Shown piece by piece: positions 2,540 to 45,837 of a stretch of 46,056 nt of DNA. The notes under the pieces were generated by a model. It searched no databases, was not told the origin of the DNA, and saw only the letters and a list, made by a program, of their open reading frames with translations. How positions within the stretch are numbered: the stretch's first letter is position 1; every line of letters begins with the position of its first letter. The stretch lies in the NCBI GenBank assembly GCA_041601915.1, contig JBFIHF010000012.1:1-46056 (forward strand), written 5' to 3'. Made by a program: the position numbers and the translations under genes. Source of the stretch: Bradymonadaceae bacterium (GTDB lineage: Bacteria > Myxococcota_A > Bradymonadia > Bradymonadales > Bradymonadaceae).

Positions 2540-4501
2540 ATGATGACGCCTCTCGCCTTCGGTACCCAACTCGATACTGTGTCTGACGACGTCGACCATA
2601 AGTTGTCCCACGACACGCCGACCTTGAGGTCGCTCGTGACGCCCGGCGACGAGGCGATCGGCGGGGACGATTCGCCCGATGCGCTGGTGATCAAGGTCTG
2701 CCGATCGTGCACGCGGTCCGCGCCCGACGACGCGGACTTTTGCCCGGAGTGCGGCGGCGACCTCGTCTCGATTCGGCGTGTCCCGGACATGTATCTGGAA
2801 GAGGTGATCGGCGGGAAGTACCGCATCGTCGAGAAGGTGGGCCAGGGCGGCATGGGTGTCGTGTACCTGGCGCGCAACGACGAGCTCGGCCAGAAAGTCG
2901 CGGTGAAGTTCCTGTCGCAGAAGTTCGCCGACGACGAGAATCTCGTCCTGCGGTTTCTCAACGAGGCGAAGAGTTACTGCCGGGTCAATCACCCCAACGC
3001 GGTGACCCTGCTCGACTACGGTCAACATGGTGACGGCGGGCCGCTGTTCATCATCACCGAGTTCATCGAAGGCAAGAACGTCACGGAGACGCTCAAGGAT
3101 CGCGGGCCGCTGCCGGCGGACACGGTGCTCGACCTCGGGTCGCAGATCGCCGAGGTGCTCTCCGCGGCGCACAGTCAGGGGGTGATCCACCGCGATCTGA
3201 AGCCCGACAACATCATGTTGATGCCGCTTTCGCGGGGCCGCTACGCGGTCAAGGTGCTCGATTTCGGGATCGCGAAGATCGTCGACGAAGAGGAGGGACC
3301 CAACACGGAGACCGGTTCGGTGTTCGGCACGCCGGAGTTCATGTCGCCCGAACAGGCCCGTGGCGACGAGGCCGACGGGCGATCGGACATCTACGCGCTG
3401 GGCGTGATCCTGTTCTACATGATCACCGGCAAGCTCCCGTTTCGGGGCAAGAACAAGCTGGTCGTGCTGAACATGCAGCTCAATGACCCGCCGCCGCGGC
3501 CGCGGGAAGTGCTGCCGACCACCGATCTGTCGGCCCGATTCGAGACGGTGATCATGAAGTGCCTCAACAAGGGGCCGAATCAGCGCTACGCGTCGGCCGA
3601 TGACCTGCTGGAGGCGTTTGAGGAGCTACGCGTGCCCAGCGGCAGCGCGACCTCGCGCGTGGGGACCGTGCGTGAAACCGCCGCCACACCTCGGCTGCTC
3701 GATAGCGCGGAGGGCCACTGGGAGGAGATTCACTCCCACGGTGAGACGCTTGCTTCCCTGGAGAACTCGGTCGTCGAGTGGGAAGTCGAGTCGATCGAGA
3801 TGGGTCGCCAGCACGACACGGGGCGAGCCCCGCCGCCCGATCGTGGCCCGGGAGCGGTGTCGATTGCGGTGTTGATCGTGGCGGTACTCGCCGTGGCGGC
3901 GCTGTTGTGGCTGGCGCTGGCCGATGATGCGCCTCCGGCCTCGCCCACCCCCAACGAGGCCGTTGAAGACGATCGCACGGAGCAGGTCGATGCCTCGCAC
4001 CGGGACGCGGTGATCGGGATCGTGCGCCGACTGATCGAAGACGGGAAGCTCGAGGACGCGCGCACGACCTATGACTACTCGCCCGTGAGCGATTCGGAGG
4101 CGCGCAAGACGTTGAACCGCGAGCTCACAGCGCTGGAGCGGGTCGGCCGCGATCTCGATGCCGCAATCGCCGCGAAAGATTGCGGGAAGGCCGCGGGGAT
4201 TGCCGCGAGCGTGGCGACCAAGGGTGTTCGCCTCAAGTTCGGCGAGCGTGTCACCGCGTGTCAGGCCGCGGTGAACCCGGTCGTTGCGCCGGCGCCGGCG
4301 CCAGACAAGCAGCCCGTGGTCGAACAACCTCCGGTTCCCGTGGTCCGCCCCAATCCTCAACCCAAACAGGATCCGAAGCCCACACCAGAGCTCGATCCAG
4401 AGCCGGATCCGCCCGTCGTCGAGGCTGAGACCAGCCCGAAACCTGCCAGCGAGAGCGTGCCCGACGACATGACGCTGCCGCCAAAAACACTCGACGATTA
4501 G
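2540..4501 (+). CDS. Membrane-spanning Ser/Thr protein kinase. It has an N-terminal Zn-ribbon, the kinase domain, one TM helix and an extracytoplasmic domain with a Pro-rich tail.
   Basis: The kinase motifs are canonical: GQGGMGVVY, VAVK, HRDLKPDNIM, DFGIAKI and APE-like SPEQ. The N-terminal Zn-ribbon is CRSCTRS...CPECGG. The TM segment is AVSIAVLIVAVLAVAALLWLALA. The start could instead be the in-frame ATG at 2516. Confidence 0.85.
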   Translation: MMTPLAFGTQLDTVSDDVDHKLSHDTPTLRSLVTPGDEAIGGDDSPDALVIKVCRSCTRSAPDDADFCPECGGDLVSIRRVPDMYLEEVIGGKYRIVEKVGQGGMGVVYLARNDELGQKVAVKFLSQKFADDENLVLRFLNEAKSYCRVNHPNAVTLLDYGQHGDGGPLFIITEFIEGKNVTETLKDRGPLPADTVLDLGSQIAEVLSAAHSQGVIHRDLKPDNIMLMPLSRGRYAVKVLDFGIAKIVDEEEGPNTETGSVFGTPEFMSPEQARGDEADGRSDIYALGVILFYMITGKLPFRGKNKLVVLNMQLNDPPPRPREVLPTTDLSARFETVIMKCLNKGPNQRYASADDLLEAFEELRVPSGSATSRVGTVRETAATPRLLDSAEGHWEEIHSHGETLASLENSVVEWEVESIEMGRQHDTGRAPPPDRGPGAVSIAVLIVAVLAVAALLWLALADDAPPASPTPNEAVEDDRTEQVDASHRDAVIGIVRRLIEDGKLEDARTTYDYSPVSDSEARKTLNRELTALERVGRDLDAAIAAKDCGKAAGIAASVATKGVRLKFGERVTACQAAVNPVVAPAPAPDKQPVVEQPPVPVVRPNPQPKQDPKPTPELDPEPDPPVVEAETSPKPASESVPDDMTLPPKTLDD

Positions 4502-4536
4502 GGCGCCCTCAAAGGTGATCACTTAAGGTGCCGCGA

Positions 4537-4865
4537 ATCCGCTGGTCTGCTCAATAATCCCCTATCCGCCGGTCCGCCGGTCCGCCGGTCCGCCGGTCCG
4601 CCGGTCCGCCGGTCCGCCGGTCCGCCGGTCCGCCGGTCCGCTGGTCTGCTGGTCGCCGGTCAAATTCAAACTAAGACCCACACTCGGTTCATGGAGCCAC
4701 CACGCGAAGCGTCGGAGCAACCTCGAGCCTGCTGGTGAACCGCGGCCTCGCCCGTGGAGCGCGAGTGCCTCGTGCGCTTCGCGTGGTGGTTCTGTAGTTG
4801 GTGCGTGGGTCTTAGTTTGAAATTGACCAGCAGACCAGCAGACCAGCGGACCAGCGGAGCGGAAC
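4537..4865. repeat. Long palindromic (hairpin) repeat element, copy A. Arms start GTTCCGCTGGTCTGCTGGTC...GGTCAAATTCAAACTAAGACCCAC and the inner stem is CCACCACGCGAAGCG/CGCTTCGCGTGGTGG. The left arm carries an expanded (CCGGTCCG)n octamer tract.
   Basis: Reverse-complementing the right arm (4801-4865) reproduces the left arm (4628-4683) almost base-for-base. A second copy of the same architecture is at 41207-41419. Confidence 0.8.
4562..4641. repeat. Octamer microsatellite (CCGGTCCG), about 9-10 units, embedded in the left arm of palindromic element A.
   Basis: Perfect tandem units are visible in the sequence. Copy B of the element has only 3 units of the related GCTGGTCT motif, so the tract appears expanded here. 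Confidence 0.9.
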
Positions 4866-4910
4866 ACTTGTGTTGAGTACGCCGTAAGATCCTACCTATT
4901 AGGGCGCCCG

Positions 4911-4948
4911 CCAAAAATGAAAGGCCCACGGGTCACCGTGAGCCTTTC
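4911..4948 (-). terminator. Rho-independent terminator for the minus-strand gene ending at 4984.
   Basis: On the minus strand the sequence reads GAAAGGCTCACGG-GTGAC-CCGTGGGCCTTTC, a ~12-bp stem with one mismatch, followed by ATTTTTGG. Confidence 0.6.
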
Positions 4949-4983: not shown

Positions 4984-5487
4984 TCAGCGCAACACGATGA
5001 CGGTTTTCGCGAGCGCGCTCTGCCCGTACCCGCGGCTGAACACCATCAAGTACTTTCGGTTCGGCGCGAACTTGGATCCGAGCTCGGCGTGCCCATTGAG
5101 GATCTTCTCCGTGCGATCGGAAGGGTAGAAGGTGAAGGTGTCCACCAACTGCTGGGTGCCAGGATTCGTGACGTCGTAGAACGAAATCGCGGCCTGCAAG
5201 GACGCCACCGGCTTGGGCAGGAACGCCATGTACTCGAACTCCCACTTTCCCGATTCGTTGGCGGTGATCTCGTGGGTGTTGACGCTCTTCATGTGCTTGT
5301 ACATCTCATCGTCGCTGCCGAAGCGCGACGGGAAGCGTTTGGTGCTCACCACGATATCGCCGTTCAGCCTCGAAATCCCGCCCTTGGCCGACGCGGGGGA
5401 GCTGATGAGGACGAAGCTCAAGGTGAGCAACAGGCTGATCATGGTGGAAAAGGCGCGATTTTTCTGCAGCTGACGAGTTCGCAACAC
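4984..5487 (-). CDS. Small secreted protein of unknown function, 167 aa, with a predicted signal peptide.
   Basis: A GTG start at 5487 is preceded by AGGAG with a 6-nt spacer. The N-terminus has a positively charged n-region plus MISLLLTLSFVLISSPASA. No recognisable domain was found. The GC content is visibly lower than in neighbouring genes. Confidence 0.6.
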   Translation of the reverse strand: MLRTRQLQKNRAFSTMISLLLTLSFVLISSPASAKGGISRLNGDIVVSTKRFPSRFGSDDEMYKHMKSVNTHEITANESGKWEFEYMAFLPKPVASLQAAISFYDVTNPGTQQLVDTFTFYPSDRTEKILNGHAELGSKFAPNRKYLMVFSRGYGQSALAKTVIVLR

Positions 5488-40697: not shown

Positions 40698-41186
40698 ATG
40701 CTGATCACACGAGTCATTTCGACACCTGTAGGCGACCTTCGCCTCGTCGGCACCGCAACTACGCTGCGAGAACTCGAGCTTCCGCCGCTGACCGGCGTGT
40801 CCGCCGACGACGCGACGCCGTCTCCGGCGCTCGACGAGGCCGAGCGTCAGCTCCGCGAGTACTTCGCCGGCGACCGGAAGACCTTCGATCTGCCGCTGGA
40901 GCTCGTCGGCACCGACTTCCAGAAAGAGGTCTGGCAGGCGCTCCTGACGATTCCGTACGGCCAAACCTGCAGCTACGTCGACCTCGCCCGCAAGATTGGA
41001 CGACCCAAGGCGAGCCGCGCGGTCGGCGGCGCCAATGGCCGCAACCCGATCTCGATCATCGTGCCGTGCCACCGCGTGATCGCGGCCGACGGCACGCTCG
41101 GCGGCTACGGCGGCGGACTCGCCATGAAGGCTCGGCTGCTCGCTCACGAGGGCTGCGCGCACCACGCGCAACAGGAGCTGGTGTAG
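40698..41186 (+). CDS. ogt: Methylated-DNA--protein-cysteine methyltransferase.
   Basis: The active site is IPCHRVI. AAGGAG lies upstream of the ATG at 40698. The ORF track's 40176 start is an artefact of fusing an out-of-gene frame. Confidence 0.85.
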   Translation: MLITRVISTPVGDLRLVGTATTLRELELPPLTGVSADDATPSPALDEAERQLREYFAGDRKTFDLPLELVGTDFQKEVWQALLTIPYGQTCSYVDLARKIGRPKASRAVGGANGRNPISIIVPCHRVIAADGTLGGYGGGLAMKARLLAHEGCAHHAQQELV

Positions 41187-41206
41187 TCTGACCAGCCTGC
41201 CGTCGT

Positions 41207-41419
41207 GTTCCGCTGGTCTGCTGGTCTGCTGGTCTGCTGGTCAACCTCAAACTCAAACTGGAGCCGCGCTCAAACCCCGGAGCCACCACGCGAAGCGCCA
41301 AGCCCAGCCGTGGAGACGAGCTGCTCGACGCGTCGCGTGGTGGCATTCCGGCCGTAGTGCGGGTCCAGTTTGAGTTTGAAGTTGACCAGCAGACCAGCAG
41401 ACCCGCGGACCAGCGGAAC
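41207..41419. repeat. Long palindromic (hairpin) repeat element, copy B. It has the same termini (GTTCCGCTGGTCTGCTGGTC...) and inner core (GGAGCCACCACGCGAAGCG...CGCGTGGTGG) as copy A.
   Basis: The left arm at 41207-41270 and the reverse complement of 41355-41419 are near-identical. It lies between the convergent ogt and kinase genes. Confidence 0.8.
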
Positions 41420-41430
41420 AGAACGGCCCG

Positions 41431-44400
41431 CTAGTTCTCGATCAGGAGCTGCGCGACGTTGAGGATCTTGCGGTTCAAGGGCTTTGCCAGGTAGGTCCGG
41501 CGCAGCTCCTCGTCGTTGATCTTGTCGCGTCGATGGATGACCACCTCGCGAGCCCGTGTGATCGCCTGGCGGCGCTCGTCTTCGAACTCCGGGCCGTCCG
41601 GCAAGATCTGGGTATGGTGGTAGAGAATGTCCTCCAGCGAGAACACCTCACCCTCGTTGACCAACTCCAGCGCGAGGTTCGAGTGTTCGATGGCGCGCTC
41701 GCGTTTGCCCAGAATCTTGTGCGCGCGCGCCATGAGGCTGTGCGCGTACCCCATACCCCACTTCATGTCCGCTTGCTCGGAGCGCTCCAGCGCATCCTCG
41801 GCCTGCATCAGCGCGATGCGCGCGGTGTCGGTCGTCGCGGCGGCCAGATGGACCTGGGCGAGCTGGAGCGTGGCGTGAACGGACAGGTAGACGTTGGGGA
41901 TCGAGTCCGCGAGCCGTAGCCCTTCATGCAGCGACGACTCCGCCTTCTTGTGATCGCCTTCCTCGATGTGCAGCGAGCCCATCGAGATGAGACCGTCGGC
42001 GAGGTTCTGAATCGAGCCGCCGCGGCGCGCGAGGTAGATGCCGCGGCGCACCGATGTCTGCGCCTTGTCGTACTCGCCGCGCAGCAGATGGCAGTGACCG
42101 ATGTTGACGAGCAGCGTCGCCTCTTCCCCGCGATGGCCGAGCTGGCGGACGCGGGTCAGCGCGTCCTCGTAGCGGGCGAGCGCTTCGGAGAATTCGCCGA
42201 GGTAGGCGAGGGCGAGGCCGGCGTTGTTGAGCAGGTAGCGACGCCACTTTCGCAGGTCGAGTGATTCGGCGTACCCGAGCGCGTCCTGGTAGGCCTGCAG
42301 CGCCTCGTGATGGCGCCCGGCCTGGCGGTGCGTGATGCCGATCAGATTAAGCGCTCGCACGAGGCCCTCGGACCCCGCCGGGCCGTCTTGCGTGAACGTC
42401 TCGACGGCGCGTCGCCCAAGCTCGATCGCCTCGTCGCGTTTTCCCTCGTTCAGGAAGATCATCGCCTCCACGAGCGAGGCATGCGCGAGGTTCCCCGCGT
42501 CATCGTTGGCTTTGGCGATGTCGCGAGCGCGATGGGAGTACTCGCGCGCGCGCCGCAATTGCGATTGTTCGAACGCGAAGCGCGCCTGCTGGATCAGCGT
42601 ATCTGCTTGCTCACGCGCATCGCCGCGCTCGGTGGCGAGTCGTTCGAGCTCATCGAGCGCGGCGCGGCATTCGTCGCGCTGGCCCAGTTCGCCCAATGCG
42701 CGCGCGCGGATCTTGAGCGCTTCGTAGTGGAACTCGTCGCCCGGCGCCACGCGCTCGAGGACCTTGTCGATCAGGCGCAGCGACTCCGCCGCGCCGTACT
42801 GCTCCAGCGCGTCATCGGCGGCCTGAAAATAGAACGCCACGGAGCGATCCTTCTCGCCCGCGCCGTCGAAGTGACGCGCGATCAGAGCAGACCGGCTATG
42901 GGTGCCGCTCGCGTTCTCCAGCAGGTGGTCGGCGAGGCGGCGATGCAGCATCGCGGCCTCTTCGGGCAGCAGCCCGGCGGCTGCGACGTCCTGCGTCAGC
43001 GCGTTACAGAACGCAAACTCACGGGAGTGCGGCGCCGTCTGGTTCGGATCGAACGTGTCCACCTGCATGCCGTCGGTGCGATCGATGCGTTCGAGCAGCC
43101 CGAGCGTCACCAACTCCGCTAGCTCGATGAAAGGCTCGTCGGGCAGCACGAGACCCAGATCGGCGCCTTTGAACGGCGACCACAGGAACGCGACGCGCTG
43201 CAGTACGACCTTGAGGTGCAGCGGCAGCCGGTCGATGCGCCCGCCGATCAGCCCTTCGACGCTGGATGGCAACCACTGCGGCGCCTTCGTGCGATCCTTG
43301 AGCGAGCGCCGCTCACCGGTGTCACCCTTGAGCATCCCGCGGTCGCGCAGAACCTCGACGACCTCCTTGATGTATAGCGGGTTGCCGCCGGCGCGGCGCA
43401 GGATCTCGGTGGCGAACGAGTCGTCCTGAATGCGGTGCAGCCGCAGCAGATCGAGGACCAGCGCCGCGCTCTCCTGCTCCCCGAGCTCGTTGAGCCGCTC
43501 CACCGTGACGTGCTTGGCTTCGAGCAACGCCTCCCAGTGCGGCTCGCCGGCGTGGCCCGCGGTGTCGTCCGCGGTAAACAGCACCATCGCCGGGGCGGGG
43601 CGCGACGTGGAGAAGAACTGCGTAATGAACTGCAGCGTCATCGTGTCGATGTGGTGCGCATCGTCGAGGGCCAGGATCATCGGCTTCTTCTCGGCGAAGC
43701 GCGTCAGCACCTTCTGCAGCGACAGGAATATGCGGTCGCGCCGCTCGTCGCCCCCGAAGTCGTCGAGCGCCGCATCCGGCCACTTGATGTGGAACAGCGC
43801 GCCGAGGCTCTGCAACAACAGCGTGCGTTCGGCGTCGTCCTCCTCGGGAAACAGCGCCGAGACGCGCGTCATCAGCGTCGACCGTACGAGGCGCAGGTCG
43901 TCGCGATGTTCGAGCCGCAGGATGTCGGCGAGGAAGGTCGCCATCGAACTCAGCGGGACGTCGCGGTGATGCACGCCGACGACGCCACGCACGATCCGCA
44001 CGTTGCGCTGATCGAGGCCGCGCAAGAACTCCTCTACCAGCGTCGACTTTCCAATCCCCTGGCGGCCGACCACGAGCACCATCTGCGCGGTCTGCCCAAG
44101 GATCGTCTCGCGGTAGGTCTCGCGTAGCAGCTTCAGCGGGATCTCGCGGCCGTGAAACCGACTGTAGCTGCGCCGAAGCTCGACCAGCGCGTCTTCGCCG
44201 CTCTTGGGGCCGGTGAGCAGGTAGGCCTGCACCGCCTGGGAGTGGTCATCGTCGGGGTGCTCGACGCGATCGACGGTCTCGGCGTCGTAACGCCTGCGGA
44301 TCCGCCGGTAGACCTGCCCGCCGATCAGGACTTCGCGCGCCATCCCTGCGTGGGCGAGCCGCTCCGCGAGCTCGTTGCCACTGCCGAAGAACGACCACGA

Positions 44401-45837
44401 AAAGCGGCGCCCGGTCTTGTCGACCTCCTGCTCCAGCACGACGTCCCCGATCGCGATCCCGGCCGACAGGTTGATCGGGTACTCGAGGCTGTGGTTGATG
44501 CCCGCGACCGCCTCGTGCAGGTCGAGGGTCACGCGCACGGCGAGCTCGGCGTCGTTCTCCGACGAGACGGGGATGCCGAACAGCAGCACGAAGCCGTCTT
44601 CGTTCACGCGATGCACGACGGCGTCGCTCTTGAATGCGATGGAGTCCACGATGCGGGTGTAGGCCTGCAGCACTTGCAACCAGCGGTCCTGGCCGACCGC
44701 AGCCCGCATGTCGAACAGGCCTTGAAGCTCGCCCGCCACGATCACGACTTCCTTTCGTTCGCGGGAGTGGACCTCGAGGCGCGGGTCCATCTCGTCGACG
44801 ATCTTCGTGACGGGCGTGTTGGTACTGATCTCCATCGTTCCGCCCGTCACGGTGCGGATCATCGAGGTGTGGGCGCGCGTCGCCGATCCGGTGGCCGCGT
44901 ATCCGCCATGGGCGGCCGGGTCGATGCTGGACTCGATGCGCCGGAAGTAGGCGGACAGCGTGCCGGAGTCGTGCACCTGCTCTTGCGCGTACAGGATGCG
45001 CATCAGCTCGTGCTGCAGCTCACGCGCCGATTCGGGGCGGTCCGCCGGGTCGCGCGACAGCACCCGATAGACGAGCTCGATCAGCGTCTCCGAGATGTCG
45101 GCGTTGAGGCTCTTGATGTCCGGCACCACCGCGGACTTCACGAGGCTCATGATCTCGTCCTGCGAGCCGGCCTTGAACAGCGGGCGCCCACACAGCATCT
45201 CGAACAGCACGACACCGAGACTGAAGACGTCGCTGCGCTGGTCGACGGGCGTGCCCGACGCTTGCTCGGGGCTCATGTAGGCGAACTTGCCCTTCACCGT
45301 GTTCGGGTGGTGGTCGGCGACGAGGGTTGCCTTGGCGATCCCGAAGTCGACGATCTTGACGCTGCCATCCGTCGAGACGAGCACGTTCTGTGGGCTCACG
45401 TCGCGGTGCACGATGTTGAGCGCGCCGCCGTGTCGGTCCACCTTGGTGTGCGCGTAGTGCAGCCCCTTGGCCATCTCGGCCGCGATGAACACCGCATCGC
45501 CCACCGAAAAGCGGACCCCGGACTTCGCCGACGCGCTCATCAGGTGTCCGAGATCGGCGCCATCCACGTACTCCATCGCCAGGTAGTACGTGCCTTCGTG
45601 CTTCCCGAAGTCGTAGATCTGCACGATGTTGGGGTGGTTGAGGTCGACCGCGATCTTGGCTTCGGAGATGAACATCTCCACGAAACGCTGGTTCTCCGAG
45701 AACTCGGGCAAGATGCGCTTGATGACGAGAATCTTCTCCAGACCCTCGGCGCCAAAGCTCTTCGCGAGGAAGACCTCCGCCATGCCGCCGGTGCCGATCT
45801 TCTCGACGAGCTCGTATTTTCCGAAATCGCGCGCCAC
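41431..45837 (-). CDS. Multidomain Ser/Thr kinase, 1468 aa. Domain order is N-terminal active kinase, a class-III cyclase-homology domain (probably degenerate), a STAND/AAA P-loop NTPase and C-terminal TPR repeats.
   Basis: The GTG start is at 45835-45837. Kinase motifs are GTGGMAEVF, VIKRI, HRDVSPQNVLV and DFGIAKA. The cyclase-homology-like segment is ...VVHRVNEDGFVLLFGIPV...LSAGIAIGDVVL.... The P-loop is VVGRQGIGKST. The C-terminal ~500 aa are TPR-like. Confidence 0.8.
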   Translation of the reverse strand: MARDFGKYELVEKIGTGGMAEVFLAKSFGAEGLEKILVIKRILPEFSENQRFVEMFISEAKIAVDLNHPNIVQIYDFGKHEGTYYLAMEYVDGADLGHLMSASAKSGVRFSVGDAVFIAAEMAKGLHYAHTKVDRHGGALNIVHRDVSPQNVLVSTDGSVKIVDFGIAKATLVADHHPNTVKGKFAYMSPEQASGTPVDQRSDVFSLGVVLFEMLCGRPLFKAGSQDEIMSLVKSAVVPDIKSLNADISETLIELVYRVLSRDPADRPESARELQHELMRILYAQEQVHDSGTLSAYFRRIESSIDPAAHGGYAATGSATRAHTSMIRTVTGGTMEISTNTPVTKIVDEMDPRLEVHSRERKEVVIVAGELQGLFDMRAAVGQDRWLQVLQAYTRIVDSIAFKSDAVVHRVNEDGFVLLFGIPVSSENDAELAVRVTLDLHEAVAGINHSLEYPINLSAGIAIGDVVLEQEVDKTGRRFSWSFFGSGNELAERLAHAGMAREVLIGGQVYRRIRRRYDAETVDRVEHPDDDHSQAVQAYLLTGPKSGEDALVELRRSYSRFHGREIPLKLLRETYRETILGQTAQMVLVVGRQGIGKSTLVEEFLRGLDQRNVRIVRGVVGVHHRDVPLSSMATFLADILRLEHRDDLRLVRSTLMTRVSALFPEEDDAERTLLLQSLGALFHIKWPDAALDDFGGDERRDRIFLSLQKVLTRFAEKKPMILALDDAHHIDTMTLQFITQFFSTSRPAPAMVLFTADDTAGHAGEPHWEALLEAKHVTVERLNELGEQESAALVLDLLRLHRIQDDSFATEILRRAGGNPLYIKEVVEVLRDRGMLKGDTGERRSLKDRTKAPQWLPSSVEGLIGGRIDRLPLHLKVVLQRVAFLWSPFKGADLGLVLPDEPFIELAELVTLGLLERIDRTDGMQVDTFDPNQTAPHSREFAFCNALTQDVAAAGLLPEEAAMLHRRLADHLLENASGTHSRSALIARHFDGAGEKDRSVAFYFQAADDALEQYGAAESLRLIDKVLERVAPGDEFHYEALKIRARALGELGQRDECRAALDELERLATERGDAREQADTLIQQARFAFEQSQLRRAREYSHRARDIAKANDDAGNLAHASLVEAMIFLNEGKRDEAIELGRRAVETFTQDGPAGSEGLVRALNLIGITHRQAGRHHEALQAYQDALGYAESLDLRKWRRYLLNNAGLALAYLGEFSEALARYEDALTRVRQLGHRGEEATLLVNIGHCHLLRGEYDKAQTSVRRGIYLARRGGSIQNLADGLISMGSLHIEEGDHKKAESSLHEGLRLADSIPNVYLSVHATLQLAQVHLAAATTDTARIALMQAEDALERSEQADMKWGMGYAHSLMARAHKILGKRERAIEHSNLALELVNEGEVFSLEDILYHHTQILPDGPEFEDERRQAITRAREVVIHRRDKINDEELRRTYLAKPLNRKILNVAQLLIEN

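Follow-up and report, generated by a model that had tools for sequence, protein, structure and literature searches.

A 12-bp direct repeat brackets a foldback-like palindromic element behind a kinase gene in a contig of a probable Bradymonadales-like bacterium

The 46,056-bp contig JBFIHF010000012.1 (assembly GCA_041601915.1), analysed at its full length and hereafter called the window, carries a Ser/Thr protein kinase gene (2540–4501, plus strand) that converges with a gene for a 167-aa protein (4984–5487, minus strand). The spacer between the two genes is occupied by a large palindromic element, designated copy A, which is bracketed by an exact 12-bp direct repeat, ATTAGGGCGCCC. A second copy of the element, copy B, is located 36 kb away. 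We consider the repeat, with a probability of about 0.5, to be a genuine duplication that arose on insertion of a 389-bp non-coding segment carrying a foldback-type palindromic repeat. The host lineage of this repeat is probably an uncultured Bradymonadales-like bacterium (Myxococcota), to judge from the named homologues of the kinases at both sites.

The kinase gene encodes 653 aa (P0001, 100% identity) in a reading frame that is open from position 2438. The product of the convergent gene has no Pfam match, and its orthologues in the related metagenomic contigs L001 and L002 are 74–79% identical. Between the element and this gene, an intrinsic-terminator-like hairpin was found on the minus strand (4910–4948), with a 13-bp stem at 4919–4948 and a T-run at 4910–4918 that abuts the second copy of the direct repeat. 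This hairpin belongs to the 167-aa gene, and ancestrally both convergent genes probably shared it as a terminator.

Both copies of ATTAGGGCGCCC are on the plus strand, at 4497–4508 and 4898–4909, and enclose exactly 389 bp (4509–4897) with the hairpin element inside. No third site was found in the window, even with one mismatch tolerated. The first copy comprises the last 5 nt of the kinase coding sequence (ATTAG, including the TAG stop at 4499–4501) and the 7 nt that follow. Since the stop codon of the host gene and the two bases preceding it lie inside, the repeat was counted as target rather than element sequence. The original prediction, made from the DNA letters alone, had reported the 12-mer pair around the kinase stop and a bracketed hairpin-bearing segment of ~390 bp, and both observations held.

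The chance occurrence of such repeats was estimated at 60,000 random contig positions by comparing paired 60-nt windows placed 330 nt apart, with both elements and the tandem arrays left out. An exact direct match of at least 12 nt was obtained in 0.035% of random pairs (~3.5 × 10−4 per site), or ~7 × 10−4 for the two examined sites together. The figure was 0.18% when the real site was kept in the sampling.

The right-hand side of site A, including the second copy of the repeat, was also recovered in L022 and L023, independent Logan assemblies of two sequencing runs. No base differed in the right-hand 12-mer, the right flank or the terminator, apart from one homopolymer in the terminator tail (T7 vs T5, with T7 in L023). 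The right side of site A is therefore not an artefact of a single assembly, and the T7 variant indicates a near-identical strain with an occupied site in the second sample.

The repeat can be stretched to 16 nt with 14 of 16 positions matching (ATTAGGGCGCCCTCAA vs ATTAGGGCGCCCGCCA), which adds 4509–4512 and 4910–4913. This longer version is symmetric around the 8-nt block GGGCGCCC contained in the 12-mer, and both insert ends that remain start with AGGT. The extension had no statistical support.

Four metagenomic contigs (L001–L004), in which the kinase shares 54–64% amino-acid identity with that of the window, were used for comparison of site A. The gene order is kept in all of them: kinase, 167/170-aa gene, FGE-sulfatase kinase and pur genes. 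The spacer between the kinase and its neighbour measures 77, 13, 25 and 3 bp in L001–L004, respectively, versus 482 bp in the window, and the element is absent from the spacers of all four syntenic loci. Removal of the 389 bp together with one 12-mer leaves an 81-bp spacer consisting of the stop codon, 7 nt, an A-run and the hairpin. The same layout is found in the 77-bp spacer of L001, the nearest relative, which has a hairpin analogous to that at 4910–4948; this agreement supports an insertion with target duplication. The predicted empty allele would contain ...CTCGACGATTAGGGCGCCCGCCAAAAATGAAAGGCCC..., and the form with a single 12-mer ...GATTAGGGCGCCCGCCAAAAATG.... A search for empty sites in related genomes had been proposed along with the original prediction; it yielded the four element-free loci, but no nucleotide-exact empty site at 54–64% identity.

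Within the insert lies a palindrome that is nearly complete and carries 8-nt tandem repeats in each arm. The insert begins with a 20-nt left outer segment, TCAAAGGTGATCACTTAAGG (4509–4528, 40% GC), followed by the left terminus (4529–4552), which is homologous to that of copy B (TGCCG-CGAATCCGCTGGTCTGCT vs TGCCGTCGTGTTCCGCTGGTCTGCT). Next to it are an AT-rich 13-nt insertion, CAATAATCCCCTA (4552–4564), found in copy A only, and the left-arm tandem array of TCCGCCGG (4565–4661). The left inner arm (4655–4711) contains GGTCAAATTCAAAC and a 19-mer, GGAGCCACCACGCGAAGCG, that copy B shares without any difference, and the right inner arm (4775–4831) is 79% complementary to it. The central loop region between the inner arms (4712–4774) is 63 nt long in copy A and ~33 nt in copy B, and is partly alignable. 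The right half continues with the tandem array GACCAGCA/GACCAGCG (4825–4855) and the right terminus (4856–4884), also homologous to that of copy B and split by 11 nt specific to copy A (4869–4879). The last 13 nt form the right outer segment, TAAGATCCTACCT (4885–4897, 38% GC). Apart from the central loop region, to which no strand was assigned, these parts are given on the plus strand. The two outer segments and the AT-rich insertion are each unique in the window, and neither outer segment occurs in copy B. With 38–40% GC against 66% in the contig, the outer 20 and 13 nt look imported or intergenic rather than derived from local coding sequence.

The termini of copy A have the form TGCCG..TCCGCTGG, and a GGTCAA..TCAAAC motif is located between the arrays and the inner stem. 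Candidate ends of the element are AGGTGATCAC... or TGCCGTCGTGTTCC..., while the insert as bounded by the direct repeats starts with TCAAAGG... on the left and ends with ...CCTACCT on the right (AGGTAGG... as reverse complement). The outer flanks of copy A were also considered as terminal inverted repeats; this assignment was rejected, as their complementarity was not significant.

According to the DNA folding of the 426-nt segment spanning the insert (4490–4915), the minimum energy was −136.7 kcal/mol (z = −11). As RNA, the copy A segment folded at about −255 kcal/mol on either strand, and copy B at about −195 to −200 kcal/mol (z from −17 to −18). Because neither strand of either copy folds clearly better than the other, the transcribed strand is not inferable from these values. 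The element was also considered as an intrinsic terminator, and this was rejected since a terminator scan found none formed by it.

The arms of copy A are unequal, with ~12 of the 8-nt units on the left and ~4 on the right, compared to ~4 in each arm of copy B. The expanded left-arm variant TCCGCCGG pairs imperfectly with the right arm, and the inequality looks like a microsatellite expansion that took place after the palindrome had formed. The octamer GCTGGTCY was considered as a Chi-like or over-represented word and dropped: it occurs 8 times outside the elements, versus ~3.5 expected overall, with no notable strand bias.

Copy B (41197–41429, no strand assigned) is 233 bp long. Complementarity between its arms reaches 88% across 80 nt, and 82% of the positions that align with copy A are identical. 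The palindrome extends to the very ends of the core that copies A and B have in common. Among the differences between the copies are two compensatory changes of base pairs and indels that match between the arms, which indicates that the palindrome has been maintained. Both copies sit between convergent genes, within 2–28 nt of the neighbouring stop codons. Copy B nearly fills its spacer: the O6-methylguanine-DNA methyltransferase gene ogt (40698–41186, plus strand) stops 10 nt before it, and a gene for a 1468-aa kinase/AAA/TPR protein (41431–45837, minus strand), with a C-terminus conserved in orthologues, converges on it with its stop 1–2 nt away. In the two closest relatives, L009 (14366–14924) and L010 (8212–8742), whose large kinase is 81–82% identical, a His_Phos_1 histidine-phosphatase gene separates the large kinase from ogt. 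This gene is missing from the window, which has copy B in its place (41187–41430), and more distant relatives have other neighbours. Since the neighbour content differs among relatives, site B is a synteny breakpoint. A 9-mer, CAGGAGCTG (41172 and 41443), was examined as a target duplication of copy B and rejected: the match is at chance level and falls in C-terminal codons of both neighbours that are conserved in orthologues.

Logan contigs end inside the octamer arrays of both copies (L022 at 3932, L023 at 2426 and L008 at 5067; runs SRR29257386 and SRR29257383), and L022 and L023 break off at the identical base. These breaks fit assembly stops induced by repeats or by heterogeneity; they are compatible with further copies and do not prove them.

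Further copies were sought in several collections. An nhmmer search with copies A and B against ~150 kb of the relatives' loci found no copy, and its single match was the end of L008, which represents the same locus as copy B. In the GTDB representative genomes, an exact-pattern scan (GTTTGANNTTGACCAGCAGACC) gave one chance match, in a coding region of Chloroflexia, and JGI metagenomes, scanned with a pattern for both arms, contained two identical matches in coding DNA that are due to chance. Scans of viral contigs revealed no real copy, and blastn against plasmids returned one 36-nt chance match. Six-frame translations of both copies, joined together and compared with 5.8 billion proteins in order to catch further copies mis-annotated as open reading frames (ORFs), had no match. 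No Rfam family was identified, and a sub-threshold microRNA match to the octamer array was spurious. Nothing relevant was found in the literature on Myxococcus miniature inverted-repeat transposable elements (MITEs) and Bradymonadales intergenic repeats.

The repeat and its rarity, the palindrome, copy B and the lack of the element at orthologous loci are direct observations. The course of events that we infer for site A, from transposition and the size of the staggered cut to the order of steps and any function, would be the following. A 389-bp segment would have entered 7 nt behind the stop codon of the kinase gene, just before the shared terminator of the convergent pair, by transposase-type integration with a staggered cut of about one helical turn (12 nt) that covered the last 5 nt of the coding sequence. 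Repair synthesis would then have duplicated ATTAGGGCGCCC, and owing to this duplication the kinase would have retained its stop codon. After the insertion, the left-arm array would have grown by slippage from ~4 to ~12 units, and small indels would have accrued. Copy B, which shows no detectable duplication, would be older or truncated; it lies at the place where the two closest relatives hold an extra gene. Members of the family would share long inverted arms, consisting partly of 8-nt tandem repeats, and a short variable centre. Transcripts of the flanking genes probably include the element at their 3' ends, where it would fold into a very stable hairpin and may influence termination or mRNA stability.

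Several observations weigh against a duplication produced in this way. The block GGGCGCCC, which makes up 8 of the 12 bases of ATTAGGGCGCCC, is self-complementary, so the two copies of the repeat can also pair as the base of a hairpin of ~410 nt. The direct repeats do not sit at the edges of the A/B homology but 20 and 13 nt further out, and copy B lacks the outer segments as well as the space for them. The ends of the insert as bounded by the repeats (4509–4533 vs 4869–4897) show no significant complementarity (p from 0.2 to 0.35). Copy B, as the original prediction had already stated, has no obvious flanking duplication, its best repeat being 9 nt long (p about 0.035) and lying in conserved codons. 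The nucleotide match between the reconstructed empty site and L001 was not significant (p = 0.33) in a comparison with relatives this distant; the best local match in L001 falls at the junction of repeat copy 2 and the terminator, and L001 aligns about equally well with the sequence really present behind repeat copy 1. No transposase, integrase or RAYT (Y1) domain was detected in the large ORFs of the 46-kb contig. Finally, two copies are known, both within 46 kb, with no other in the searched collections.

Part of this evidence is accounted for by an insertion without a transposase, which we regard as unlikely and yet as a serious rival. A break behind the kinase gene would have been repaired by templated or ectopic copying of the element together with 20 and 13 nt of donor flanks, and the 12-bp repeat would result from fill-in of the staggered break or from template switching. 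Such an event would explain the unique AT-rich segments outside the A/B homology, the insert ends that are not inverted repeats and the missing duplication at copy B, and it agrees with the transposase-free contig. However, microhomologies in this type of repair are usually a few nucleotides long rather than 12, and a dispersed family with conserved palindromy points to regular mobility. The self-complementary block raises another scenario, in which the element landed in the apex of a pre-existing hairpin: GGGCGCCC...GGGCGCCC would be an ancestral stem-loop behind the kinase gene, with the ~355-bp core (4529–4884) in its loop, and the apparent direct repeat would be a self-complementary stem base plus a chance ATTA. 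Some insertion sequence (IS) elements are indeed known to target hairpin loops of repetitive extragenic palindromic (REP)-type elements. Besides the 8 of 12 self-complementary bases, this scenario is consistent with the pairing of both repeat copies in every fold, with the weak pairing of the flanks (AGGTG/TACCT and CTTA/TAAG) and with the presence of TAAG near the core on either side. It nevertheless demands both a palindromic stem arm (~1/256) and ATTA on the same side (~10−3 in GC-rich DNA), and the complementarity of the flanks beyond GGGCGCCC is not significant. The ancestral spacer that it implies, ~128 bp, exceeds those of all four relatives (3–77 bp), none of which has a second hairpin. 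A random duplicated 12-mer would hold an 8-nt self-complementary block ~2% of the time, and a pre-existing hairpin with a self-complementary arm and a same-side ATTA should be far rarer than a duplication that happens to contain a palindrome. We therefore judge an origin in a pre-existing hairpin improbable.

The least probable of the alternatives is pure coincidence, that is, a 12-mer match unrelated to the arrival of the element. The repeat was seen at one of two copies, it does not abut the shared core, and the earlier reading of the sequence had sought exactly such repeats. Against these points stand the low chance figures per site and over both sites, the uniqueness of the 12-mer even at one mismatch, and the frequency of its 8-nt block: GGGCGCCC is not over-represented, with three occurrences in the window versus 2.7 expected, two of the three being the direct repeat itself. 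A duplication that accompanied the insertion of the 389-bp segment remains our preferred explanation. Together with the smaller share that falls to insertion without a transposase, the balance of probability favours site A as the footprint of an insertion by which a palindromic repeat, from a family not described before, came to lie behind the kinase gene.

Known bacterial MITEs, such as the Correia elements of Neisseria, ERIC/IRU of enterobacteria and RUP of Streptococcus, are 100–170 bp long, with short terminal inverted repeats and duplications of 2 bp (TA) or a similarly short length. Like them, the element is small, non-coding, dispersed, intergenic at gene ends and able to form a stable hairpin if transcribed; it is absent from the orthologous sites of relatives, and copy A is flanked by duplicated target sequence. 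Unlike them, it measures 230–390 bp, is palindromic almost throughout, has 8-nt arrays in both arms and is associated with a 12-bp repeat. The insert (389 bp) and copy B (233 bp) fall within the size range of MITEs (under about 600 bp, non-coding). As to a consistent duplication length, the two copies available show 12 exact base pairs at site A and a chance-level 9-mer at site B. The original prediction, a MITE mobilised by a transposase and flanked by a target-site duplication of 12 bp, is supported only in part: the real duplication that includes host sequence, the dispersed repeat and the element-free relatives speak for it, whereas the contig without a transposase, the repeats that do not abut the element and copy B without a duplication do not.

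Foldback (FB-type) transposons of eukaryotes are usually kilobases long, some of them coding, with duplications of roughly 7–9 bp or more. The element resembles them in its long inverted arms built of short tandem sub-repeats, which are unequal between arms and copies, in its short non-repetitive centre and in the target duplication. By this resemblance, which does not imply membership, foldback transposons may be regarded as the nearest architectural analogue. REP units are 20–40 nt and REPINs about 100 nt long; they lack target duplications and rely on a RAYT (Y1) gene. Common to the element and the REP/BIME/REPIN group are the palindromic structure, the position immediately behind the stop codons of convergent genes and a plausible action on transcript 3' ends. 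Unlike that group, it is 233–389 bp long, carries a 12-bp flanking repeat at copy A and has no RAYT in the window. Membership in REP/BIME/REPIN was rejected, given the large size, the unfitting flanking repeat and a window free of Y1-transposase domains.

The length of the repeat, described in the original prediction as unusual for a target-site duplication, is indeed long, but it lies within the known range, as IS4-family elements duplicate about one helical turn, ~10–13 bp (PMC2266710). Target-site specificity has been documented for IS231 (PMC2266710). The repeat of 12 bp, compared to ~10 bp, resembles those of the IS4 family and of MIC231 from the Bacillus cereus group in spanning about one helical turn. 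In contrast to the IS231 and ISH8 subgroups of IS4, the insert lacks conserved 5'-CAT ends. It also differs from the IS4 family in that the 12-bp repeat is not centred on the palindrome GGGCGCCC and no IS4-type transposase is encoded in the contig. As a tentative generalization, both copies may belong to an undescribed bacterial foldback-type family, seen to date in a single uncultured Bradymonadales-like lineage, whose long inverted 8-nt microsatellite arms expand and contract and whose members insert behind the stops of convergent genes with a duplication of about one helical turn (12 bp), using a transposase supplied in trans.

Other repeats and unusual domains were found elsewhere in the contig. 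A 21-nt tandem array at 145–363 (~10 copies, 77% match, or alternatively a 64-nt period) lies at the very beginning of the contig, in an ORF without a Pfam match (47–1006), and may be the reason for the contig end at this point. Four repeats of the 12-nt unit AACTTCCCCGGT are found at 36823–36871, in a Schlafen/AlbA_2 – Fic-like_C gene (36589–38292, minus strand), just upstream of the C-terminal domain, and presumably encode a 4-residue linker repeat. Major-vault-protein domains (MVP_shoulder, Vault_3) were identified in the gene at 31568–33874, and a similar gene is present at the edge of the syntenic contig L009. A 92-nt direct repeat (35894–35985 and 36119–36210) with 77% identity and a spacing of 225 nt represents an internal domain duplication, since both units encode Cys-rich segments within one ORF.

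If the 12-mer is not a target duplication, the element would simply be a palindromic repeat between genes whose 12-mer is due to coincidence or structure, and its interest would be purely local. If it is a true target-site duplication, the element would be an unusual small bacterial mobile element, nearly all of it palindrome, with microsatellite arms like those of eukaryotic foldback elements and a long 12-bp duplication. It is placed where transcripts of regulatory kinase genes are bound to contain it at their 3' ends. It would then provide a natural test case for the effect of very large hairpins between convergent genes on termination and mRNA stability, and a way to approach genome plasticity in the Bradymonadales, a predatory group that has been sampled poorly.

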